From sequence record MN106245.1: a stretch of DNA of 64,000 nucleotides, one strand, 5' to 3'. The first letter of the stretch is position 1. Every line of letters starts with the position of its first letter. The notes below the pieces were generated by a model. The model did not search any database and was not told the origin of the DNA. It saw only the letters and a list, made by a program, of their open reading frames with translations. Below are positions 12,868 through 28,879 of this stretch, piece by piece. A program made the translations under genes and the position numbers. Source of the DNA: Klebsiella phage EI.

Positions 12868-13083
12868 TCAGGAATATTTATAACTCATTTTTACTAACTC
12901 TTTTAGGAGCTCTTCATTGGCTTCATCAACCGCAATACGGAACACCTCATTTAAAGGGTCTAATGCTTTTAAGATTTCTCGGTCGATTTCACGAGTAATT
13001 TCTTCTTGAAGGACCTTTACTAAGGCCCTTTCTTTTTGTTTTCTTTTTATTTTTAAACGGCGCTTAGATATTCTTGCAGCCAT
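12868..13083 (-). CDS. hypothetical basic/acidic helical protein, 71 aa
   Basis: ORF track; ATGA overlap with gene 56. Confidence 0.4.
   Translation of the reverse strand: MAARISKRRLKIKRKQKERALVKVLQEEITREIDREILKALDPLNEVFRIAVDEANEELLKELVKMSYKYS
12875..12882 (-). promoter_or_regulatory. T4-type late promoter TATAAATA for soc
   Basis: plus-strand TATTTATA = minus TATAAATA ~30 nt upstream of soc ATG. Confidence 0.55.
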
Positions 13084-13601
13084 TAGTAACCACGGTCTTG
13101 TCGGGCAAAGTTTTCAGCATTTTTCAGATAGTACAGTTTGAAGATCTCTTCGGCCGTCATACCAAGACCCTGGAACATGTTCAGAACGAAATGTAGAATA
13201 TCGATCATTTCGAATTTAATTTCAAGTTGGTCTTCAGGAGACAGTTCGCTAATCAAAGTATTACGGCGTTCAGCATGTTGGGCTTTCCAAGGTTTCCAGA
13301 CTGCAGAGGCATCTTTCTCGCCGTTAGACATGCCACCTAATGAAGTCAGAAGTTCACGGAACTCGTCGTCAATGTAGTCTTTCTGATTGCGAAGCCAATC
13401 AACTACATCGCCAGCACGTGCTAATGCATCAGGATGAGCATTATGCTCAGGTTTATCAATAGCCAGACGGACCTGGAGAGATTTTTGCATATCAAGCATA
13501 ACCTGCAAAGCGTCTTGTTTATTAACCCACAAGTCATAGTAAGCTTCTTGGGCTTTATCAACGCCGTCAATCAGTTGAGAACATTCATTAAAATGTGCCA
13601 T
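13083..13601 (-). CDS. 56: dCTP pyrophosphatase (dCTPase/dUTPase, MazG-like), 172 aa
   Basis: Length and MazG-like all-alpha NTP-PPase features match T4 gp56; locus between soc and 61. Confidence 0.75.
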   Translation of the reverse strand: MAHFNECSQLIDGVDKAQEAYYDLWVNKQDALQVMLDMQKSLQVRLAIDKPEHNAHPDALARAGDVVDWLRNQKDYIDDEFRELLTSLGGMSNGEKDASAVWKPWKAQHAERRNTLISELSPEDQLEIKFEMIDILHFVLNMFQGLGMTAEEIFKLYYLKNAENFARQDRGY

Positions 13602-13602
13602 T

Positions 13603-13640
13603 TTATTCCTTTCAGTTCAGGTGGTAAGTAGAGTAATTAT
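13603..13640 (-). promoter_or_regulatory. candidate middle/early promoter with -10 TATATAAT and conserved leader TTACTCTAC (shared with uvsX upstream)
   Basis: minus strand TGAGTATATAATTACTCTAC; near-identical 20-mer at 20211-20235. Confidence 0.35.
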
Positions 13641-13644
13641 ATAC

Positions 13645-14397
13645 TCACTTCTTTTTAGCGTTTTCGAAGAATTCTTCAGTCAAACGCCGGTTTTCTTTTT
13701 CTTTTTCTAACCGAGCTTCTTCTTTCTTAAAGAGAACTTTACATGCATCTCGGAAAGAAGCCTCATCTTCTGGGGTTTCAACAAACACTGTATTCATGTT
13801 TGCTAAACCTATTACAACGGCTTCTTTGTTTGCATCAAGCCAAGCAACGTCTTTCATAGGAGCTGTGCGGTAAACTTCAGATTCGATCTGTTTAAATTGA
13901 TCATAAGCCATTTTTACGTTACAACGATCTAAATAAGCATCGCCAAACTTTTCTAAAACTTCTAAAGAAACTCTGTATCCGTCAGCTTCAATATAGCCTT
14001 TGGCGACGTGTTCTTTTAAGTTGTCTACTACGGATTTAGGCTTAGGCTTAGTTTCTTTAACTTCTTTCATTGGCTCTTTAGGCCCTTTATCCACTACAGT
14101 GTATGCGTACTTTTCATTATTGGCAAGTTCTTCTATACGAGAAGCATACACGTAAGCTAGGCCTTCCACGCTAGTTTGCTTGTTTCTGACGTTTTTAATC
14201 CAAGCCCGCTGGTCTTCAACGGGCTTTTCTTCGATTGCACTATAAACCTTGTTAAGGCTCGAATCCAGCTCAGAAACTAACGCATCCGAACAAATCAGCT
14301 TTTCTACTTTAGACGAAGCTTTAGAGCAATCAAACGAAGCAGCTTGGGCCGAAAAAGAAGCAATGGTTAAAGCAACTGCAGTTAAGATAATTTTCAT
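13645..14397 (-). CDS. secreted/periplasmic protein with LprI/DUF1311-like N-domain (lysozyme-inhibitor fold), 250 aa
   Basis: Signal peptide MKIILTAVALTIASFSAQA; CSKASS.VEKLICSD.L..LD..LN.VY....QRAWIKNVRNKQ pattern typical of LprI domain. Confidence 0.5.
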   Translation of the reverse strand: MKIILTAVALTIASFSAQAASFDCSKASSKVEKLICSDALVSELDSSLNKVYSAIEEKPVEDQRAWIKNVRNKQTSVEGLAYVYASRIEELANNEKYAYTVVDKGPKEPMKEVKETKPKPKSVVDNLKEHVAKGYIEADGYRVSLEVLEKFGDAYLDRCNVKMAYDQFKQIESEVYRTAPMKDVAWLDANKEAVVIGLANMNTVFVETPEDEASFRDACKVLFKKEEARLEKEKENRRLTEEFFENAKKK

Positions 14398-20184: not shown

Positions 20185-20240
20185 TATATTTTTCTCACGT
20201 TGTTTATAAAGTAGAGTAATTATACACTCAAGGTTTAACA
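20185..20240 (-). promoter_or_regulatory. candidate MotA-dependent middle promoter for uvsX (MotA-box-like TTGCTG ~19 nt upstream of TATAAT)
   Basis: minus strand aaTTGCTGttaaaccttgagtgTATAATtactctac; shares 20-mer with gene 56 upstream. Confidence 0.35.
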
Positions 20241-20244
20241 GCAA

Positions 20245-20514
20245 TTAAATCTTTAAACTTGTTTGCTTTGCCTGCTCTTCAGCGATAAGAGCATCCATCT
20301 TAGCGTCGTGTTCTCGCTTCATAGCCATTGCTTCTTCATGGTCACTAGAGTAGTGAACTTGGTTAGAGTTTGCATTACGGACATAGCCTATATTGTTGCC
20401 GCCGACGGTAAAGATTGTACCAACATCAGAAAGACGGTATGTATTTCCGTCTTCATGTTGAGCACACCCATTAAGAGTTAATGCGGCCAGTACGAGAATT
20501 AATTTAAGTTTCAT
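20245..20514 (-). CDS. putative lipoprotein, 89 aa
   Basis: MKLKLILVLAALTLNGC lipobox; ATG 20514 with GGAGAA SD (track start 20547 inside promoter). Confidence 0.45.
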   Translation of the reverse strand: MKLKLILVLAALTLNGCAQHEDGNTYRLSDVGTIFTVGGNNIGYVRNANSNQVHYSSDHEEAMAMKREHDAKMDALIAEEQAKQTSLKI

Positions 20515-20527
20515 AGTTCTTCTCCAA

Positions 20528-20580
20528 GTGTAGGAACACTTTAACACATTCCTACACTATTGTAAACCGCACGGTTTACA
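20528..20580 (-). promoter_or_regulatory. early promoter/stem-loop cassette P6 plus palindromic -35 (GTAAACCGcACGGTTTAC)
   Basis: IR GTGTAGGAACA/CATTCCTACAC; GTTTAC present on both strands. Confidence 0.5.
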
Positions 20581-20588
20581 AAATAAAT

Positions 20589-21488
20589 TTATTCATTAAT
20601 TACTACTTGCTTATAAGCAGGAATATTATATGGAGAATTTATTTTAGCCTTAAAATAGATGAACTCTGCTAGCCCAGGATGGAACACTTTTTCAGGGTCT
20701 TCAAAGTACTGGATAGTTGGCTGACCCATTAGTACTTGGTAGTATTCTTTCTTGGTTAGGCGCAGAACGTGGATCTTGGCTTCTTTAGGATACTGTTCAC
20801 GTTTGAAACTCATGTTCGGGTCTGTGATATACAAGACACGATCTGCTGCAATAGCGCATTCAACAACTTGGTCAAAACGATAACAAGGGTCACTGATACG
20901 GAATGGATGAAAAATACCATCAAGATGGATTGGTTCCAGGCCTTCTGTATAACGTTCCATGACACTTGGGTTGACGACTCGTTGATCTACAAAGATACGG
21001 TCTGGAATTGCACCAGCCGCTACGAGAACGTCTTTCTGACCGTGATTAAGAACAAATGTTGCTACAGACTTGTTCACAGATTCAACGTCAATGTCAATAA
21101 ACTCGTCAATATAATACCGAGGATTCTCAGGGTCTTTAGTTATATTAAAAACAAAGAATACCTCATGGTTGCCTTGATATCCAGTAATATCTGTCACTAG
21201 ATAAGAGCAGTCGTAGTAATCAACCAAAGAATCAACTATAAACTGATTTTCTTCCCAGAAATGTTTACGAGTTTCATAAGCATTTTCCTTGTACCAAAGA
21301 GGAACAAATTCAAACTCTGGGAATAGTTCTTTACATTCTTCGATATCACTTGCGTTACGTGGAACCGCGATGATATCACCAGCACTAGCACGATTCAAAT
21401 GTAACTGGAAGTTGCCGTCCTTAAGGACGGCGTATTCACCAGTTTCATAGCTTCGCATACTAAAGATTGGTACACGGAAATAAGCCAT
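20589..21488 (-). CDS. hypothetical protein, 299 aa, occupying the T4 beta-glucosyltransferase slot; candidate DNA-modifying transferase
   Basis: ATGA-coupled to gene 42 stop; no recognisable motif by eye; position between 42 and uvsX. Confidence 0.5.
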   Translation of the reverse strand: MAYFRVPIFSMRSYETGEYAVLKDGNFQLHLNRASAGDIIAVPRNASDIEECKELFPEFEFVPLWYKENAYETRKHFWEENQFIVDSLVDYYDCSYLVTDITGYQGNHEVFFVFNITKDPENPRYYIDEFIDIDVESVNKSVATFVLNHGQKDVLVAAGAIPDRIFVDQRVVNPSVMERYTEGLEPIHLDGIFHPFRISDPCYRFDQVVECAIAADRVLYITDPNMSFKREQYPKEAKIHVLRLTKKEYYQVLMGQPTIQYFEDPEKVFHPGLAEFIYFKAKINSPYNIPAYKQVVINE

Positions 21489-22201
21489 CAGATAAAACCT
21501 CTTACATAATCAAAATCACGTTCAAAGACGTGGGCTGAAACCATAGTGTGAGAATACGTACCTAATTGTACACCACATTTATCGGCAATGTATTGCATTA
21601 ACTTGCCTTGCAGATAAAAGTCTAGCTGCATCACTACGGCACAGTTCTGTGAACGCATATGTGTATGGGCATAAAGCTTGCCTTCACGGATATAGTACGT
21701 TATAGAATCTGTACACGGGTATTCAAGTGATTCATCTGAATCTAGAAGTGCTTGGTCTTGCTCTTGGAGAATTTGGAACACAACACGTCGCGAGTTAGGC
21801 TTTTCTTTAAGCTCTTTAAGCAATGCAGGGAGTTGGGCAGCAATTCGAGGTCCATAGAAAGTGTTGAAGTTTGCAGGCAGTACGTCACTTTTCGGCTTAT
21901 CAATGAACTTAGCAACATTCGGGTATTCCTTAAATGCTTCAGCGGCATCAGTACCACCAGAAATCATGAATTGCCAGAATGCTTCAGCATAATCATAATC
22001 AATACGGTTGATACGAGAATCGGTGAATTTGAACGTTGTCGGATCGGTTACTTCGATTGAAGCAGAACCGATTTCATTACAACGGCCAATACGAGAATCA
22101 ATAACGAACTGCGGATTGTTGAGAATCTCTTCGTTCAGTACTTTGAATGCGGTTTGGAAAGACGGGTATGTAATATGTTTCATTCTGTTGTGCTCTGACA
22201 T
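21488..22201 (-). CDS. 42: thymidylate-synthase-fold deoxypyrimidylate hydroxymethylase (gp42-like dCMP hydroxymethylase), 237 aa
   Basis: TS-family core (PNSRRVVFQI, HTHMRSQNCAVVMQ vs T4 gp42 PDSRRGIMIY, AVVNMRSNDVV); locus next to 43. Confidence 0.65.
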   Translation of the reverse strand: MSEHNRMKHITYPSFQTAFKVLNEEILNNPQFVIDSRIGRCNEIGSASIEVTDPTTFKFTDSRINRIDYDYAEAFWQFMISGGTDAAEAFKEYPNVAKFIDKPKSDVLPANFNTFYGPRIAAQLPALLKELKEKPNSRRVVFQILQEQDQALLDSDESLEYPCTDSITYYIREGKLYAHTHMRSQNCAVVMQLDFYLQGKLMQYIADKCGVQLGTYSHTMVSAHVFERDFDYVRGFI

Positions 22202-22217
22202 TAAAAAATCCTATTAT

Positions 22218-22245
22218 ATACTAAAAGAGGCCGAAGCCTCTTTGC
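22218..22245 (-). terminator. rho-independent terminator (AAGAGGC-ttcg-GCCTCTT + TTTAG)
   Basis: Between U32-like gene stop and gene 42; followed on minus strand by TATATAAT. Confidence 0.6.
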
Positions 22246-23406
22246 TTATTCCGGGTACCGGAGTTCGTCGTCTGAACTAGTAACATCTACGATCTGGATA
22301 GAATCCAGAGGCCGGTCATTTTTAGATAACTGGCGCTTGTAGTAACGTTCGCAGTAAGTACAAGTACTACCGCAGACTTCATTAGCACAGTCAAATGTAG
22401 GATGTTTGAACCAACGTTTTTCAAGGAAGCCATCTAACAAAGAAGTCTCGATATTCACAGTATGGCTATAGTTAGCGTCAGATTCACCGTTGTAGATAGT
22501 TTCGAGAGGTTTCCACAACTCAAGAAGGTTACCTTCAAATTGCTCTGAAGAATACGCTTCAAGAACCTTCATGATGTATTCGGTTGAGCCTGTTCGACCA
22601 GAGACTTTGAACTGCGTGATGCCAATATCACGATACAGTTTTAGGTCTTGTGGACGCACAAAACGTGTGCGTAGCCAGTTGAAAGGGTCGGTGTCTCGAG
22701 CTTTAATGCAGTGCTGCATTGGATAACCGTCGAGCGATTTTGCATCTTCTGCAGTAATGTCGGTACTGTGGAAAATATAGCAAGAATCACGATAACTACA
22801 ATGAGTCGTGTAACCCTTGCCTGCGTTTGAGCAGAACTCATTAACGAGGACTTCAAAGATAATACCATTTTCATTACAAAATGCTGCGGCTTGTTTCAAG
22901 AAGTTAACTGATCTGTTCTTATGAATCCCACAGCACACTTTCTTAATGTTGTACTGATCATGAAGATATTTTATTTGAGTAACAGCATCAACATGCAGGA
23001 TAGTTGATACCTCAATTTCAATTTCTTTATTTACTTCACGAACAATTTCCATTACAACCGGGTTAGCTATAGTGATACGCCAAACACCAATAGAAGATAA
23101 GTACTGTACGTAATCTTGAATGGCTTGTTTTTTCCATTCTGTCAGTTCGCGTTTGGTCCCTGGGTTTATACTGTTTAAAGTATAATTAAAGCAAATACCG
23201 AGTTCGTTACAACGTCGAACGTAAGTTTCCAGCTGGCCATCTTTAACATCAGGCAAACGGAAGTCCGGTCGAGCAGCGACAAAGGCCATCGCTCGTGTAC
23301 TACCATAAACTTCATTAATCAGTGACTGTGGATTCTTAGCATTCAGCTCAACGATTTTATCCAGAAGAGCCAAGTCAAAATTAGTTCCGACCTTAAATAC
23401 GTTCAT
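22246..23406 (-). CDS. peptidase-U32-family protein (RlhA/TrhP/UbiU-like putative Fe-S, O2-independent hydroxylase-type enzyme), 386 aa
   Basis: U32 core pattern (ICFNYTLNSINPGT..; VWRITIANPVVMEIVREV..EVSTILHV) and Cys-rich E-x-F..C..C..C segment (NEFCSNAGKGYTTHCSYRDSC) plus C-terminal CANEVCGSTCTYC. Confidence 0.45.
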   Translation of the reverse strand: MNVFKVGTNFDLALLDKIVELNAKNPQSLINEVYGSTRAMAFVAARPDFRLPDVKDGQLETYVRRCNELGICFNYTLNSINPGTKRELTEWKKQAIQDYVQYLSSIGVWRITIANPVVMEIVREVNKEIEIEVSTILHVDAVTQIKYLHDQYNIKKVCCGIHKNRSVNFLKQAAAFCNENGIIFEVLVNEFCSNAGKGYTTHCSYRDSCYIFHSTDITAEDAKSLDGYPMQHCIKARDTDPFNWLRTRFVRPQDLKLYRDIGITQFKVSGRTGSTEYIMKVLEAYSSEQFEGNLLELWKPLETIYNGESDANYSHTVNIETSLLDGFLEKRWFKHPTFDCANEVCGSTCTYCERYYKRQLSKNDRPLDSIQIVDVTSSDDELRYPE

Positions 23407-23942
23407 TTAATACCTGTTTTATTTTCAATATATGCGAAAAGGCGTTTAGCTTCGTCTTCATTATATCTCAAAACCCGATTAAAGCCATCATGCTCTAAAA
23501 GCTTAAACACGTTTTCAAAGTTGCGCTCGTACTCGGTAATAGTCAGATTAAACTCATCTTTAGTCAGTTTAATCAAATCATCTTCGAAGTCTTCGTCAAG
23601 TTTGTTGCGTGACAAAATGACTTCAACTATGTCAAATTCTTGTTTGAATCGAATCCAATCTCTAAGGTGTTCATATGGGTCTATTTCACCACGAAGGAAT
23701 CCAGAATAAACTATATTACTAGGGTACCCTCGGTCAAGAATATAGACAAAATTAGGATCTAAGAACTTGTATAAGGTTTCGACCAAGGCTTTATCGTTAT
23801 CTGTACCTAATGAAATACACTTGCCATTAATTGATTTAGGAAAATCAATTAGTTTTACCTTAGGATTCCTAATAAGAGCCTTAATAAAAGATGACTTCCC
23901 TGAATTATCAGGGCCGTCTACAACAATAATTTTAGGACTCAT
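23403..23942 (-). CDS. P-loop (d)NMP/nucleoside-kinase-like protein, 179 aa
   Basis: IVVDGPDNSGKSS Walker A; LDRGYPSNIVYS (DRY/ERS-like lid motif of Tmk/dNK families). Confidence 0.5.
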   Translation of the reverse strand: MSPKIIVVDGPDNSGKSSFIKALIRNPKVKLIDFPKSINGKCISLGTDNDKALVETLYKFLDPNFVYILDRGYPSNIVYSGFLRGEIDPYEHLRDWIRFKQEFDIVEVILSRNKLDEDFEDDLIKLTKDEFNLTITEYERNFENVFKLLEHDGFNRVLRYNEDEAKRLFAYIENKTGIK

Positions 23943-24298
23943 GGATGATATGCCTTGTATGTTTCAAATGTGCCATCTTGAATCATTTTCTTAAAGTGAT
24001 CAGGTCGAATTGCTCGGTCGTCAATAATAAAATCATAACTTGGTTTATGTGTAAGCAGATTATGATACTTCAGACCAATTTTTTCAAGGTTCTTGACAAG
24101 AGCAGGGACAACTTCAGTCAGAATTCGACCTGGGCCGCAAGAGGTCATACCGCGAGCAGTGTACAAGGTTATCTCGTGGCCTTCATCATAGAGCTTGTTA
24201 ATTATGGCCACCATTTCATGGTCTGGTGCAAAGTTCAGATAATCACGATTGCTATTCCATACCGTGATTGTGTTGTCGATGTCGAAGCAGAGATTCAT
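23939..24298 (-). CDS. small HAD-superfamily phosphatase, 119 aa
   Basis: Motif I FDIDNT (DxDxT), TLYTARG (motif II Thr), K..IDD motif IV. Confidence 0.6.
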   Translation of the reverse strand: MNLCFDIDNTITVWNSNRDYLNFAPDHEMVAIINKLYDEGHEITLYTARGMTSCGPGRILTEVVPALVKNLEKIGLKYHNLLTHKPSYDFIIDDRAIRPDHFKKMIQDGTFETYKAYHP

Positions 24299-24345
24299 TA
24301 ATAGGCCTTATAGTTAAAGACGATTCACAGGTCAATACTTTATAA
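24299..24345 (-). promoter_or_regulatory. sigma70-like promoter TTGACC-N17-TATAAG upstream of HAD gene
   Basis: minus strand TTGACCtgtgaatcgtctttaacTATAAGgcctattaATG. Confidence 0.4.
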
Positions 24346-24354
24346 AGAAATGTA

Positions 24355-24392
24355 TCTTTAAAAGATTTAGGAGGAGGCATTTTAGCCTCCTT
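24355..24392 (-). terminator. hairpin AAGGAGGC-taaaat-GCCTCCTCC + T-rich tail downstream of NTase-kinase gene
   Basis: 6-8 bp GC stem; could alternatively be SD+ATG of a 42-aa ORF (MPPPKSF...). Confidence 0.4.
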
Positions 24393-24415
24393 AACAGTGT
24401 CATTACGAACTAGAA

Positions 24416-26080
24416 TCATCCGATTCGTTCCCACTGGTGGGCGATGTTACCGCCAATTGGTTTATATTTTACACCAGTTTCTTTATCAAGCAATTCCCAT
24501 TTATCAGGGCATCTGGTAATAATAGAAGCTGTGATTGGGTCTTTAACTTCAGTCACTTCGGTGCCATCGATAAGTTTACGTTTGCGAGGCCGCCTTTTAA
24601 GCAGCACACTCAGCTGATACAGACCATGATAATAAGCGCCAATAGCCTTAAGAGGGTTGTTCTTGAAATACCCTGCTAAAGCCATCCAAATAACGGCAAT
24701 CCACAGTTTATGCTTAAAGGTACACATAGGGATATCATCTAACGGCATTACTTTCTCAATGTCGACAAACATTCTAGGGCCATTCCGAGAAATACCACCC
24801 CATAGTGGATCTGCGTTAAATTTATCGTACCCATCAATAGAATAAAGCACTTTAGCTTCATCATAAATGGTAGGGCCGTACTGACTACTACCAAAATAAC
24901 CACGCGGGTCTATAATTTTAATATCACCCGAATCGGTAAACATAATGTTAGAATAATGCGGGTCGCCGTGGATCAACTGGTACGGTTCTTTATGCTCGGA
25001 TAGAATTTCTAATGCGTGTTCCAGCAGTTTTTCTGGTTTACCTACTTTAAAATCGTTAACATGGGTAATGCCTTGAGGTGCAAAACCTTCTAAAAGTTCT
25101 TTAATAGAATCGTTGCGGATTAATACCTTATCAAGAACTTCTTTCTTAACATCTGCATACCATTGCTCGTCGGTAGGAATATAGATATCGCCACCTAATG
25201 ATTTCAGAGCACTGATTACTTTATATACCATTAATACTTGGGTATCTTTGGTCATCAGAGGATATGCATCTGCCATGGTTTTACCGTAGATTCGTTCCAT
25301 CTTAATAAATTCACCTGGCGTGAAATCTACAATAGTAGGAATAAATTTCGATTGTACAGAATTATACCATTTAAGCTCTTTAGCTTGAATTTCTTTACCA
25401 TATTCATTAGTCGGGATTTTAATAGCATGTTGTTCTGTGAATTTGAGCTTGTTAAAGTCACGATTAATCTCTGAGGTTTTATGCGCTTCGGCTAATTTAA
25501 GCTTATCACCAATGTCAACAACTGACTCTAGCTTACGCTCGGTCATATAAACCATCGAATCTAAATTGTCGGCAAGGTCTTCGCCATAGTTACCTTCAAA
25601 AGAATAGAACCCGGGCCATTGAGCCACTTGATACATGCCAACCACGCCACCACCGGTCCCGATTTCACGGAAATACGGTTCTTCAAAAGTGAAACGACAA
25701 TCTGTACCAAAGGTATAGCAATAATCATTACCCCATTCTACTTCATGGCCTTCCGGAATAATGTCGCACCAATTGAACAGTACATTATGGCCTACAATAT
25801 CATCAGCAATACAATCAATAGCGTGCGCAGAACCTATAGATACATCAACATGACGAATGGTAATATCACTTATTCCAACAGACTTCATGTACCCACGAAC
25901 TAGCCCGTCAAATTTACTGTGAATTACTAGAATAATTTCATCTGATTGATTTTTATACAAATCAACCAAGTGTTTAAAAACTGTGTGCTGTTTGTAGTTT
26001 ACAAGCACTTTAGGGATTTCGTTTGTAATCGGGTATAAACGCGACCCAAGACCGGCACCCAAGATAACTACTTTACGCAT
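24416..26080 (-). CDS. bifunctional sugar-1-phosphate nucleotidyltransferase (N-term, GlmU/RmlA-like) / APH-fold sugar anomeric kinase (C-term), 554 aa
   Basis: N-term ILGAGLGSRLYPIT..PKVLV signature; C-term HGDPHYSNIMF..IKIIDPRG Brenner/APH catalytic + DxG motifs (NahK/AmgK-like). Confidence 0.6.
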   Translation of the reverse strand: MRKVVILGAGLGSRLYPITNEIPKVLVNYKQHTVFKHLVDLYKNQSDEIILVIHSKFDGLVRGYMKSVGISDITIRHVDVSIGSAHAIDCIADDIVGHNVLFNWCDIIPEGHEVEWGNDYCYTFGTDCRFTFEEPYFREIGTGGGVVGMYQVAQWPGFYSFEGNYGEDLADNLDSMVYMTERKLESVVDIGDKLKLAEAHKTSEINRDFNKLKFTEQHAIKIPTNEYGKEIQAKELKWYNSVQSKFIPTIVDFTPGEFIKMERIYGKTMADAYPLMTKDTQVLMVYKVISALKSLGGDIYIPTDEQWYADVKKEVLDKVLIRNDSIKELLEGFAPQGITHVNDFKVGKPEKLLEHALEILSEHKEPYQLIHGDPHYSNIMFTDSGDIKIIDPRGYFGSSQYGPTIYDEAKVLYSIDGYDKFNADPLWGGISRNGPRMFVDIEKVMPLDDIPMCTFKHKLWIAVIWMALAGYFKNNPLKAIGAYYHGLYQLSVLLKRRPRKRKLIDGTEVTEVKDPITASIITRCPDKWELLDKETGVKYKPIGGNIAHQWERIG

Positions 26081-26130
26081 TTCGTGTTCCTCATTTGTTG
26101 ACGAGCTATTGTACTACATAATAATTAAAG

Positions 26131-26160
26131 CGAAGCCCTAGAGTGATTCCAGGGCTTCAC
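26131..26160 (-). terminator. hairpin GAAGCCCT(11-nt loop)AGGGCTTC downstream of gene 43
   Basis: 8-bp stem; weak U-tract. Confidence 0.35.
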
Positions 26161-26173
26161 GGCCTAATCTATA

Positions 26174-28879
26174 CTACCATCCTAAGATATCATCTAAGGT
26201 TGCAACGTGCTCATAGTTGATTCTAGCCGCTGATGTAAAGCCAGACAGCGGTTTAACAAACGTTTTTTGGAACAGCGTTGAGTAGTCAAGGTACTTTAAC
26301 ACATCTTCACGAATGCTAGGATCGATCTGAGTACCTGATGGCCATGCTATGCATTTGTCACCAAACGGGTTCTGGTCCCGTAACGGTAGTACCATTACTT
26401 TAGACCCTTCAACAATCGCTTCTGCATCTGGGATGTTTTTAGTAGCACGGTTATAAGCCAAGATTCCACGAATATGGAACGGGCATTTGTACCCAGGATA
26501 ACCGTTATCATCGTACTGAGCAATATTGTTCGCAGAACTAACACCAGCAATAGTCATATAATGCTGTTTACGGAATTCTTGTTCAAACTCTTTATAGTAG
26601 TCCTGTAATGAGCTTTCACCTTCTTGAAGCATACGGCGAATACATTCTTTCAATGCTTTCTGGCATGCTTTAGGAGTACTTGACTTTTGAGTTTCAAGGC
26701 CCATAATTTTCATTTTAGGGTCCGCGTAGCGAGTCCCTTCCATGTCATACACGTTCAAAGCGTATCGCTTCTTACCAGTCCAGAAACCACCAAGACCTTT
26801 AGAACCTAATGGAGGACAAGCAATAGCTTCTCGGTCCATAAACATCAGCTGTTCTTTGTTGTTCATGTAGTCGCACATATCCTGGAATGCACGGCCGATA
26901 GCTGGCTCTAATTTTTCTTTAGCAAACTTATCTAAGAAGTCTACTAAATGGTTCGTATCACGGAACTTGTCTTCACCGATCTTCTCGATTAATGGGTCTA
27001 CACACATATAGATTGAGTCTGTGTCACCATAGATAACATACTTATGGTTATCAGTCTTCAGTGTTTCATTGTAGAACTCGTTCACGCGGCGTTCAATCCA
27101 TTGCAAGGCTAATTGTCCGAACAAAGTGATTGCAGTTGCGTTACGAAGGTCGTAATAACGGAAGTGTACGTTACCAAGAGCACCATAAAGTGAGTTGATA
27201 AGTAGCTTACGACAGATCTGAGCTGTCATACCAGCGATTTCAGTACGAGTTGCTTTATCAAGCATACTCATCAAGATAGCTTCGTTAAAATCGTGAAGCT
27301 GCGCCTTAATACTTTCTTCCATATCGAAACGATAATCAAGAGTCGGTTCTGGCTTATCAGAGCTCTTTGGATTATGCAATGCTTCTTTAATCAGTTCTGC
27401 ATTACGTTGAGCCGCCAACATAAATCCTTTATGAAGTTTACGCTGGTCGAATACTTTCTTAATTTCAACAGGTACAACGCCATCAATATCTTTACGATAC
27501 ATCCAGCCATTAGGAGAACAAGAGTATTCTTCACTCGGTTTTGGAGCAGTACCAGCAATGTATTCATGAAGTGGGCGGACAGCAAACTGGCTATGCAAAG
27601 TTTCCGGGCTTATGTTAACTTGTCGAATAATACTCGGATACAGAGACGTCAGGTCAGCAGATACAACGTACTTATAACTATTAGGAGTAGGCTCTTTAAC
27701 AAATGCACCTGGGTAACTTTGTGGAATGTGGTGCTTTTTCTGAGGAATGACTTTATTGTCGTTCTTCAACGAGTTAAAGATGATTGCGTCCCATGTCTTA
27801 ATAGGGCTGAATACCGACTGCATCTGCATTTTAGCGTAATAAGCCATATCTAACGACAGGTTCAAGAACTGGCGTTTTTTATCGATTTGTTGTACTCGAG
27901 CAACGTCAATAATGTTATACGAAATATACCGTTGGTGGTTAGTTTCACGAAGTTTGTTGATAGGGCCGTCATATTCTAATTTACCCACGCCAAGTTCATA
28001 CTCAGCTACATAGTCAAGACGATACGAAGGCTGGTTCGTAAAACTAAATTTCTTGTATAAGTCTAAGTAATCAAGAACACTGATACCCATCGGTGTGATA
28101 ATTTCACGTTCATCACCAAAGTTATCTGCAATAATTTTGCTATTGACTTTACGAAGAGGGCTTAAACGCCTAGCGGTCTTTTCACCAAACACGTTCTTCA
28201 GTCGATTATAAACGTACGGGTTATCGAAACCTTCTACGTTCCAACCAGTTAGAATAACAGGGGTCTGTTGTTCCCACAGATTCAAGTATTCGAGAAGAAG
28301 TTCTTGTTCGTTATCAAACGGCAGATAAACAACTCGGTCAAGAATATCCTGAGGGATTTCATCACCACCTTCAGCTTCTGATTTACCGGCTAATACCGGG
28401 TCCCACTTAGTTACTTTGCCGTAAGGAGAATTCAAAAGGTCAAACACATAGAACTTATCAGCAATACTATCATAATGAGTTAATGCATCGATAGGATACT
28501 TGGCTTCATTAGGCTTCGGAAATTCTGGAGCTGTTACTTCGATGTCATAGTTACACTGGCGAACTAATGTCGGGTCAAAATGAATTTCACCTGGGTACCT
28601 ATCAGACAAATAAGCCAGCTTAAAGTCATCCATACCCATTGCATCTTGCCCGATGTCTTCCATTCTACGAATCCAGTTACGGGCTTCCTTCATATCTAAG
28701 AAATGTTTTTTCTTACAATTCATTCCGTAGATATCTTTGTACTTTGATTCAGTATCAGAATGATAGAACAGGGTTGGTTTATAATCAATCTGACGGGTCT
28801 GTTCAACCCCGTTTGAATCAATATATCGTTCGTGAAGTGTATTGCCAAGCTGTTCGATAGTTAAAAAGAATTCTTTCAT
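26174..28879 (-). CDS. 43: DNA polymerase gp43 (family B, with 3'-5' exonuclease), 901 aa
   Basis: Exo I FDIE, pol motifs DxxSLYPS, YGDTDS; length ~T4 gp43. Confidence 0.9.
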   Translation of the reverse strand: MKEFFLTIEQLGNTLHERYIDSNGVEQTRQIDYKPTLFYHSDTESKYKDIYGMNCKKKHFLDMKEARNWIRRMEDIGQDAMGMDDFKLAYLSDRYPGEIHFDPTLVRQCNYDIEVTAPEFPKPNEAKYPIDALTHYDSIADKFYVFDLLNSPYGKVTKWDPVLAGKSEAEGGDEIPQDILDRVVYLPFDNEQELLLEYLNLWEQQTPVILTGWNVEGFDNPYVYNRLKNVFGEKTARRLSPLRKVNSKIIADNFGDEREIITPMGISVLDYLDLYKKFSFTNQPSYRLDYVAEYELGVGKLEYDGPINKLRETNHQRYISYNIIDVARVQQIDKKRQFLNLSLDMAYYAKMQMQSVFSPIKTWDAIIFNSLKNDNKVIPQKKHHIPQSYPGAFVKEPTPNSYKYVVSADLTSLYPSIIRQVNISPETLHSQFAVRPLHEYIAGTAPKPSEEYSCSPNGWMYRKDIDGVVPVEIKKVFDQRKLHKGFMLAAQRNAELIKEALHNPKSSDKPEPTLDYRFDMEESIKAQLHDFNEAILMSMLDKATRTEIAGMTAQICRKLLINSLYGALGNVHFRYYDLRNATAITLFGQLALQWIERRVNEFYNETLKTDNHKYVIYGDTDSIYMCVDPLIEKIGEDKFRDTNHLVDFLDKFAKEKLEPAIGRAFQDMCDYMNNKEQLMFMDREAIACPPLGSKGLGGFWTGKKRYALNVYDMEGTRYADPKMKIMGLETQKSSTPKACQKALKECIRRMLQEGESSLQDYYKEFEQEFRKQHYMTIAGVSSANNIAQYDDNGYPGYKCPFHIRGILAYNRATKNIPDAEAIVEGSKVMVLPLRDQNPFGDKCIAWPSGTQIDPSIREDVLKYLDYSTLFQKTFVKPLSGFTSAARINYEHVATLDDILGW

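Follow-up and report, generated by a model that had tools for sequence, protein, structure and literature searches.

Why would a phage that already owns a cytosine hydroxylase keep, in the same gene cluster, a protein of the U32 family? The question is raised by a 64,000-nucleotide stretch of the genome of Klebsiella phage EI (MN106245.1; this whole stretch is referred to below as the window), a T4-like phage of the Straboviridae. Positions 22246..23406 of the window, on the minus strand, encode a 386-amino-acid (aa) U32-family protein, the ortholog of gp50 of phage RB69 and a candidate O2-independent, prephenate-dependent pyrimidine C5-hydroxylase. Public labels for the gene are peptidase or collagenase (GenBank, PHROG) and, in some GenBank records, epimerase. 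We see about an even chance that its product is an O2-independent, prephenate-dependent C5-hydroxylase of deoxycytidine monophosphate (dCMP). The basis of this reading that can be observed directly is the family of the protein, its fold, its conserved cysteines, the order of the genes around it, and the associations it keeps across genomes.

A U32 protein inside a DNA-modification operon

The gene is an ATG-started open reading frame (ORF), as an earlier note on this DNA had described it, and the motifs quoted there (FNYTLNSINP, WRITIANPVVMEIVRE, EVSTILHV, and NEFC...THC...DSC) are all found in its product. The same note had placed the protein in the U32 family, an assignment borne out by a Pfam scan in which PF01136 (Peptidase_U32) matches residues 95-286 with 45.3 bits against a gathering score of 22.4 (E 8.6e-12). 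PHROG 5757 matches over the full length. An AlphaFold2 model, built with 62 homologs as input, is confident (predicted local distance difference test 92.5, predicted template modeling score 0.91), and fold comparison recovers the U32 TIM barrel as it is seen in Mk0906 (PDB 5d88). Only fold comparison finds this structure; a sequence search of the PDB returned nothing meaningful, its best match being a plant basic helix-loop-helix protein at E 0.28. By profile and fold, the protein is a member of the U32 superfamily. The gene is also under purifying selection: it differs from RB69 gp50 by 180 synonymous and 53 non-synonymous codon changes, with third positions accounting for 207 of the 306 base differences, and from its counterpart in Kanagawavirus Entb_45 by 143 and 18, respectively. 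The clade of phage U32 proteins is large: 1.84 billion proteins contain 1169 cluster representatives that match at E<=1e-3, and 99 still do so at E<=1e-30.

The earlier note went further and called the protein RlhA/TrhP/UbiU-like, which at the level of subfamilies does not hold. When the Escherichia coli paralogs are scored with a profile of the phage family, TrhP reaches 14.6 bits, RlhA 8.7, UbiU 4.7, and UbiV -1.6, and the match to TrhP consists of three short fragments only, which leaves the phage protein outside the TrhP subfamily. Its best NCBIfam match is the UbiU model NF047963, at 18.5 bits against a cut-off of 440, so that it belongs to neither UbiU nor UbiV, and with 386 aa instead of about 650 aa and no DUF3656 match in the Pfam scan it is not an RlhA either.

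Conservation within the phage family is centered on cysteines. Nine are invariant among 62 members of 47-95% identity (C158, C192, C203, C209, C233, C340, C345, C349, and C352), the last four of which form a C-terminal CX4CX3CX2C motif. The [4Fe-4S] clusters of UbiU and UbiV are held by C169, C176, C193, and C232 and by C39, C180, C193, and C197, respectively, and the invariant C192, C203, C209, and C233 of the phage protein fall in the equivalent segment; the protein is thus cysteine-rich in the right place, as the earlier note had seen when it compared its segments with the iron-sulfur (Fe-S) cysteines. The register varies with the aligner: MAFFT pairs C192 with UbiU C176 and C203 with UbiU C193, and HMMER instead pairs CSYRDSCYIFHS with RlhA CVAYSGQCYISHA. 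In the alignment, E185, at least 90% conserved in the phage family, pairs with RlhA E161, a residue invariant across the four E. coli paralogs. An E161A mutant of RlhA restored only a very small quantity of 5-hydroxycytidine at position 2501 (PMC5727448).

The gene lies, as the earlier note had it, within a DNA-modification locus. Its start is joined to the end of the upstream gene for a 179-aa kinase-like protein by an ATGA overlap at 23403-23406, which proved to be real.

The neighboring synthase and its cluster

The DNA of RB69 and of Acinetobacter phage DLP3 contains arabosylated 5-hydroxycytosine and not hydroxymethylcytosine (Lee et al., NAR 2026, PMC13326640). In RB69, the thymidylate-synthase homolog gp48 hydroxylates dCMP, binds flavin, and takes 18O from O2, and the diagnostic residue of such 5-hydroxy-dCMP synthases is a change of ThyA D169 to N (PMC13326640). 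Immediately downstream of the U32 gene, the window encodes a 237-aa thymidylate-synthase homolog (21488..22201, minus strand) with 79% identity to RB69 gp48. It reads RSQN...QLD, which corresponds to ThyA D169N and N177D, whereas gp42 of T4 reads RSND and keeps D169. Public records annotate this type of gene as thymidylate synthase or dCMP hydroxymethylase, and the earlier note had taken it for a pyrimidine hydroxymethylase; judged by its identity to gp48 and its signature residues, it is instead of the 5-hydroxy-dCMP synthase type. Since its RB69 homolog draws its oxygen from O2 (PMC13326640), such an enzyme should be unable to work in strict anoxia. The phage thus already owns a cytosine hydroxylase, and the U32 protein is better read as an O2-independent counterpart of it than as an extra decoration step.

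The remaining genes agree with this identification. All of the modification-cluster genes discussed here lie on the minus strand, and transcription runs from the DNA polymerase gene gp43 (26174-28879) through genes for proteins of 554, 119, and 179 aa to the U32 gene, and on through those for the 237-aa synthase and a 299-aa protein to uvsX. The 554-aa protein (24416..26080) is a predicted bifunctional sugar-1-phosphate nucleotidyltransferase and sugar kinase (PF00483, PF01636, and several NCBIfam nucleotidyltransferase models), homologous to RB69 gp52:53 and to HY126 AfhE, a type of protein whose role is in making uridine diphosphate (UDP)-arabinofuranose (PMC13326640). The 119-aa protein (23939..24298) is a HAD-type sugar phosphatase (TIGR01689 capsule biosynthesis phosphatase, E 1.9e-13) with 66% identity to RB69 gp51 and homology to HY126 AfhF, a phosphatase type with a role in sugar-donor synthesis (PMC13326640). 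The 179-aa protein (23403..23942) is a thymidylate-kinase-like nucleotide kinase (PHROG 761 thymidylate kinase, E 1.4e-34; 40% identity to RB69 gp45), and the 299-aa protein (20589..21488; PHROG 3891) is a putative DNA arabinosyltransferase 1, the homolog of RB69 gp46:47, with 66-72% identity to gp47 and gp46. A gp56-like dCTP/dUTP pyrophosphatase (13083..13601, minus strand; PHROG 173 nucleoside triphosphate pyrophosphohydrolase, E 1.2e-45) would exclude unmodified deoxycytidine triphosphate (dCTP) from the phage DNA. AfhE-like, AfhF-like, DNA arabinosyltransferase, and dCTPase genes are therefore all in the window, with RB69 homologs at 40-72% identity, which marks the locus as an RB69-type arabinosyl-5-hydroxycytosine cluster. 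We predict that the DNA of this Klebsiella phage contains arabinosyl-5-hydroxycytosine instead of hydroxymethylcytosine. Over positions 20200-26200, phage vB_KpnM_Potts1 has 98.6% identity to the window, and relatives of Marfavirus F48 have about 97%; no literature data on the modification of virion DNA were found for Marfavirus or Potts1. An arabinose-5-phosphate isomerase gene goes with the cluster in RB69, Entb_45, and Acinetobacter phage Lazarus, and the 64-kb window gave no tblastn match to RB69 gp55 or to the SIS protein of Entb_45, so that arabinose-5-phosphate would come from host isomerases (KdsD/GutQ) or from a gene outside the window.

Two small ORFs also lie in this region. One of 60 aa (24252-24434), annotated in phage PWKp16 as a 55-aa hypothetical protein, overlaps the 554-aa gene at its end and the HAD gene at its start, and one of 100 aa with a lipoprotein-like N terminus (20245-20547) separates uvsX from the gene for the glycosyltransferase.

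Occurrence in isolated phages

The synthase was found in 379 phage records, including those of 57 Acinetobacter and 22 Rhizobium phages. The U32 gene was found in 221, each at least 79% identical, with hosts solely among the Enterobacterales or Shewanella. The Acinetobacter and Rhizobium phages have the synthase and lack U32; the cluster of Lazarus is without it, as is that of DLP3 according to the table of Lee et al. (PMC13326640). Dhakavirus WG01 of E. coli has exactly the cluster of the window minus the U32 gene, which marks U32 as an optional add-on module, as would befit a conditional backup. The overall distribution is suggestive of an optional cassette, made up of U32 with or without a chorismate mutase, that occurs only in phages whose hosts can grow without oxygen.

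A chorismate mutase gene between U32 and synthase in sister phages

In PWKp16, whose U32 protein is 99.7% identical to that of the window, and in Entb_45, a gene for a chorismate mutase of 80 aa lies between the U32 and synthase genes and overlaps the ends of both (39-41 bits against PF01817, cut-off 27). The product of chorismate mutase is prephenate. By tblastn, the gene occurs in 51 phage records, whose hosts belong to at least 11 genera (Klebsiella, Serratia, Yersinia, Enterobacter, Edwardsiella, Erwinia, Pectobacterium, Providencia, Morganella, Shewanella, and Escherichia, the last with phage EcS1), and its position in the 40 records listed is next to either the synthase gene or the U32 gene. 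RlhA, which makes 5-hydroxycytidine in ribosomal RNA (rRNA), requires Fe-S biogenesis and prephenate (PMC5727448), and the UbiU/V pathway has been proven to draw its oxygen atom from prephenate (PMC10990095). Phages of the Marfavirus F48 type, 97% identical to the window, keep an 81-aa mutase between the U32 and synthase genes (L001 4980-5225), so that these phages on the one hand and the window, Marfa, and Potts1 on the other form a natural pair for the contribution of the mutase. The ORF049c of RB69 was considered as a diverged chorismate mutase and ruled out, having no Pfam match and no alignable similarity.

In the window, the spacer between the U32 and synthase genes (22202-22245) contains a UUCG-loop hairpin with an 8-bp stem (22223..22242, minus strand) and a TATATAATA stretch. 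The hairpin, recognized by sequence, fold, and comparison with PWKp16, has a folding energy of -13.9 kcal/mol with a z score of -1.3. The earlier note had read a terminator at 22218-22245, but a consensus terminator scan does not call this element. The sole clear intrinsic-terminator-like site near the modification cluster is a strong 13-bp hairpin followed by a T-run at 26130-26160, directly after the DNA polymerase gene, and the probable start of the modification operon is therefore immediately past this site.

Distant homologs in uncultured viral loci

More distant members of the subfamily provide a second view of its associations. Twenty-nine distinct uncultured loci from IMG/VR and other assemblies, with U32 proteins at 37-54% identity, were analyzed for neighboring genes by local tblastn and Pfam scans; some of these homologs lie on contigs of 190-470 kb. 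In 6 of the 29 loci, the U32 gene adjoins a fusion of 3-deoxy-D-arabinoheptulosonate 7-phosphate (DAHP) synthase and chorismate mutase. Such fusions have one credible full-length match in 50,697 phage records, so their presence beside U32 is not background; MT837090, the one GenBank phage record that encodes the fusion, is 11.6 kb long and carries no U32 gene. One lineage (L007/L008, 7068-17107; European Nucleotide Archive contigs of 50-107 kb) has the fusion and U32 together with genes for dehydroquinate synthase, shikimate kinase, a dehydroquinase-5-enolpyruvylshikimate-3-phosphate synthase, chorismate synthase, and shikimate dehydrogenase. These genes, all within 10 kb, amount to the greater part of a shikimate pathway in what is putatively a phage genome.

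The other neighbors belong to nucleotide metabolism and glycosylation. In 9 loci, the gene immediately upstream of U32 encodes a homolog of the 299-aa glycosyltransferase, and homologs of the 554-aa nucleotidyltransferase/kinase occur in about 9-11. Thymidylate_kin is the commonest Pfam family among the upstream neighbors (8 of 86 proteins; a SIS domain is found in 4); further genes in the vicinity encode dCMP deaminase, dUTPase, NT5C, deoxynucleoside kinase, and a replication module with Pol III alpha and RecA. No gene of the 5-hydroxy-dCMP synthase type was found within 10 kb of U32 in the 29 loci, the lone thymidylate-synthase match (L035) keeping both D169 and N177, and a scan of IMG/VR with the synthase alignment recovered none of the U32 contigs. 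In glycosylation clusters with no such synthase nearby, U32 appears to fill the slot of the base hydroxylase. Taken together, prephenate-supply genes and nucleotide and glycosylation genes travel with the subfamily, which agrees with a hydroxylase that depends on prephenate and has a nucleotide base as its target.

Some loci differ in ways that point to other products. Three contigs (L010 5135-9098, L011 5188-9053, L057 7156-11071) share a four-gene block of GP88 (PF17338), a methyltransferase, a protein of about 250-265 aa, and U32; in L011 the methyltransferase is fused to a guanylate kinase, and NT5C, deoxynucleoside kinase, radical-SAM (S-adenosylmethionine), and SAM-synthetase genes surround the block, which may be a route to 5-methoxy or other O-alkylated pyrimidines. 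L010 also encodes a second, divergent U32 paralog (13227-14360). On a 466-kb JGI contig (L006 7447-9086), a U32 homolog comes right after a gene of the dCMP-deaminase family and is surrounded by genes for Pol III alpha, uracil-DNA glycosylase, thymidylate kinase, and a radical-SAM/SPASM protein; there, the enzyme could use a uracil nucleotide as substrate in place of a cytosine nucleotide.

Proposed role and mechanism

We infer the substrate, the oxygen donor, the Fe-S content, and the independence from O2 of the window's U32 protein. In the proposed scheme, an iron-sulfur U32 enzyme would convert a cytosine mononucleotide, most likely dCMP, to 5-hydroxy-dCMP with no O2. In anoxia, the cytosine ring of dCMP would be oxidized via the Fe-S cluster or clusters of the protein; by analogy with the scheme proposed for UbiU/V, prephenate would decarboxylate and hydroxide would be delivered to C5, with phenylpyruvate and CO2 as by-products. 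The C-terminal four-cysteine motif may carry a second cluster for electron transfer, in place of a UbiV-like partner. U32 would act in parallel with the adjacent O2-dependent 5-hydroxy-dCMP synthase, and the two enzymes together would allow full replacement of cytosine by arabinosyl-5-hydroxycytosine even when a facultatively anaerobic host grows without oxygen. Later steps would follow those known from homologs, in which the synthase requires O2 and kinases, dCTPase, polymerase, and arabinosyltransferases complete the pathway (PMC13326640): kinases would lead to the triphosphate, the dCTPase would clear dCTP, and the polymerase would insert 5-hydroxydeoxycytidine. The 299-aa glycosyltransferase would then add arabinose from UDP-arabinofuranose, a donor that the 554-aa and 119-aa proteins would make.

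The classic hydroxymethylcytosine route does not need O2. The switch to hydroxycytosine brought an oxygen dependency, which a U32 module would remove. The cost would be paid in prephenate. The G+C content is about 40%, and by a rough estimate a 169-kb genome of that composition has some 68,000 cytosines, so that a burst of 100 would consume several million molecules of prephenate. In rich media, PheA and TyrA are feedback-inhibited. This demand, together with the inhibition of PheA and TyrA, would give phages a reason to carry a mutase free of regulation or a whole pathway.

Weighing the alternatives

Several points count against a prephenate-dependent dCMP hydroxylase. No biochemical or genetic test of the U32 protein or its orthologs was found in the literature. 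The subfamily is very distant from RlhA, TrhP, UbiU, and UbiV, so that function can be transferred at the superfamily level only, and the one-to-one match to experimentally defined Fe-S cysteines varies between MAFFT and HMMER. The window itself, like Marfa, has lost the chorismate mutase gene, which Potts1 also lacks, and the 44-nt spacer stands in its place, and RB69-like Mosigviruses have the unrelated 79-aa ORF049c at the mutase position (L009 8158-8397). About 40 Escherichia phage records, including Dhakaviruses such as WG01, are without U32 (177 with the synthase against 137 with U32), and the pattern of aerobic versus facultatively anaerobic hosts draws on only two or three independent phage clades. 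In the uncultured contigs, the analysis covered 10 kb on either side of U32. Finally, Lee et al. list RB69 gp50 in their Table 1 as a 'sugar or heterocycle reductase' with structural hits to 5d88 (PMC13326640); the words U32, prephenate, chorismate mutase, and hydroxylase are absent from their text.

That label leads to the alternative that survives best, although we regard it as unlikely: the U32 protein could serve the sugar pathway in its UDP-arabinose branch, for instance as a reductase or epimerase, or modify the pentose or the sugar nucleotide in some other way. Its gene does sit amid sugar-activation genes, and distant loci likewise pair U32 with sugar nucleotidyltransferase/kinase, SIS-domain, and glycosyltransferase genes. 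However, the published route from ribulose-5-phosphate to UDP-arabinofuranose is complete without U32 (PMC13326640), and the Acinetobacter phages and WG01 have the modification-cluster genes and no U32; DLP3 and Maestro, both Acinetobacter phages, nonetheless have arabinosylated 5-hydroxycytosine (PMC13326640). No U32 protein is known to have a sugar substrate, and the recurrent linkage to chorismate mutase and shikimate genes would have no role in sugar chemistry. The earlier note had left open whether a base or a sugar is hydroxylated. A base fits the comparative genomics, whereas hydroxylation of a sugar is not needed for the known RB69 product.

A second alternative keeps the prephenate-dependent C5 hydroxylation and moves it to a polynucleotide, either cytosine in phage DNA or the tRNA or rRNA of host or phage. 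Both characterized nucleic-acid U32 enzymes, RlhA and TrhP, act on RNA polymers, and the family-specific C-terminal cysteine domain could bind nucleic acid. We nevertheless consider this improbable. With a gp56-like dCTPase encoded, cytosine should stay out of the phage DNA; the U32 gene is translationally coupled to that of a nucleotide kinase; and its distant homologs adjoin the thymidylate kinase, dCMP deaminase, NT5C, deoxynucleoside kinase, and dUTPase genes of mononucleotide metabolism. The DUF3656 region of RlhA is, in addition, absent.

It is more doubtful still that U32 is an auxiliary metabolic gene, unrelated to DNA modification, whose product hydroxylates another aromatic host metabolite, such as a quinone precursor, for anaerobic host energy. 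UbiU/V hydroxylate ubiquinone precursors anaerobically, and UbiU is the best NCBIfam match, yet its score is far below the cut-off. Against this idea, the place of the gene inside a DNA-modification operon is kept across T4-like genera and unrelated uncultured phages, and neither a second U32 gene nor a UbiV-like partner was seen among the modification-cluster genes (about 20.2-26.2 kb, the rest of the window being partly annotated); no search was aimed at UbiT-like genes. A true peptidase or collagenase, suggested by the historical family name and the database labels, is hardly credible and was rejected for want of any supporting feature, since U32 proteolysis has no established catalytic mechanism, all genetically characterized U32 members are linked to hydroxylation, and the genomic context is one of nucleotide, sugar, and prephenate metabolism. 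None of these alternatives jointly explains the prephenate-supply genes and the missing synthase in distant clusters.

Novelty and implications

Prephenate-dependent U32 hydroxylases and the arabinosyl-5-hydroxycytosine pathway are already known, and the U32 gene has been noticed before. The role proposed here, the linkage to mutase and shikimate genes, and the apparent substitution of U32 for the synthase in uncultured phages did not turn up in the searchable literature, two central papers being outside its reach. Full-text searches returned nothing relevant that ties U32, prephenate, or shikimate to phage DNA modification; a preprint on phage transposon mutagenesis has no gene-level data on the modification genes of LC53 or Bas46, and the paper on phage Thanatos models the U32 ortholog TH1_065 with no comment on it.

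More tentatively, and with somewhat less confidence than for the dCMP hydroxylase itself, U32 enzymes could give phages a widespread, previously unrecognized way to 5-hydroxypyrimidine DNA that does without O2. Many uncultured phages would have a U32 enzyme as their sole base hydroxylase, feeding glycosylation or, in GP88/methyltransferase clusters, O-methylation. One prephenate would then be spent per modified base, and this stoichiometric demand would account for the chorismate mutase, the DAHP synthase, or the greater part of the shikimate pathway in U32 phages. A DNA precursor would then appear for the first time among U32 substrates, and the presence of aromatic-pathway genes in phages would gain its first rationale.

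If the proposed role is correct, prephenate-dependent U32 hydroxylation reaches from RNA and quinones to DNA precursors. It would also explain how phages that traded folate-based hydroxymethylcytosine for O2-dependent hydroxycytosine replicate in the anoxic gut. A practical prediction is that oxygen level and host aromatic-amino-acid metabolism govern how the DNA of therapeutic phages of Klebsiella, E. coli, and Serratia is modified, and that a change in this modification would alter their sensitivity to restriction, CRISPR, and type IV systems.

Comparison with known systems

Among T4-like phages there is precedent for an O2-dependent and an O2-independent enzyme at one nucleotide-metabolic step in NrdAB and NrdDG of T4, although their protein families and chemistry are unrelated to those of U32 and the synthase. 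The anaerobic reductase gene has been named as a landmark (PMC13390438). The direct ortholog, RB69 gp50 (NP_861740.1), is 86% identical and likewise lies between the HAD phosphatase and synthase genes; RB69 differs in having ORF049c where sister phages have chorismate mutase, and its gp50 is assigned no anaerobic role by Lee et al. RlhA (YdcP), the E. coli synthase of 5-hydroxycytidine C2501 in 23S rRNA, has the U32 core in common with the phage protein, and the chemistry proposed is alike, at C5 of cytosine. By genetic evidence, RlhA requires prephenate as well as Fe-S biogenesis, and a Glu and Cys residues of its catalytic region are essential (PMC5727448). However, RlhA is a 653-aa protein with DUF3656 that acts on an rRNA precursor, whereas the phage protein has 386 aa and a likely deoxynucleotide substrate, and their C termini differ, with the CX4CX3CX2C motif in the phage protein and other, essential C-terminal cysteines in RlhA.

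The closest parallel in logic is found in two cellular pairs, TrhP and TrhO for 5-hydroxyuridine in tRNA and UbiU-UbiV versus UbiI/H/F for ubiquinone, each of which combines an O2 route with a prephenate-dependent U32 route. UbiU and UbiV form a heterodimer and have UbiT as an accessory factor, whereas the phage U32 protein is read as standing alone. In both pairs the products are tRNA or lipid; in the phage, the O2-dependent partner would be a flavin-binding thymidylate-synthase homolog, and the product of the two routes would pass into viral DNA.

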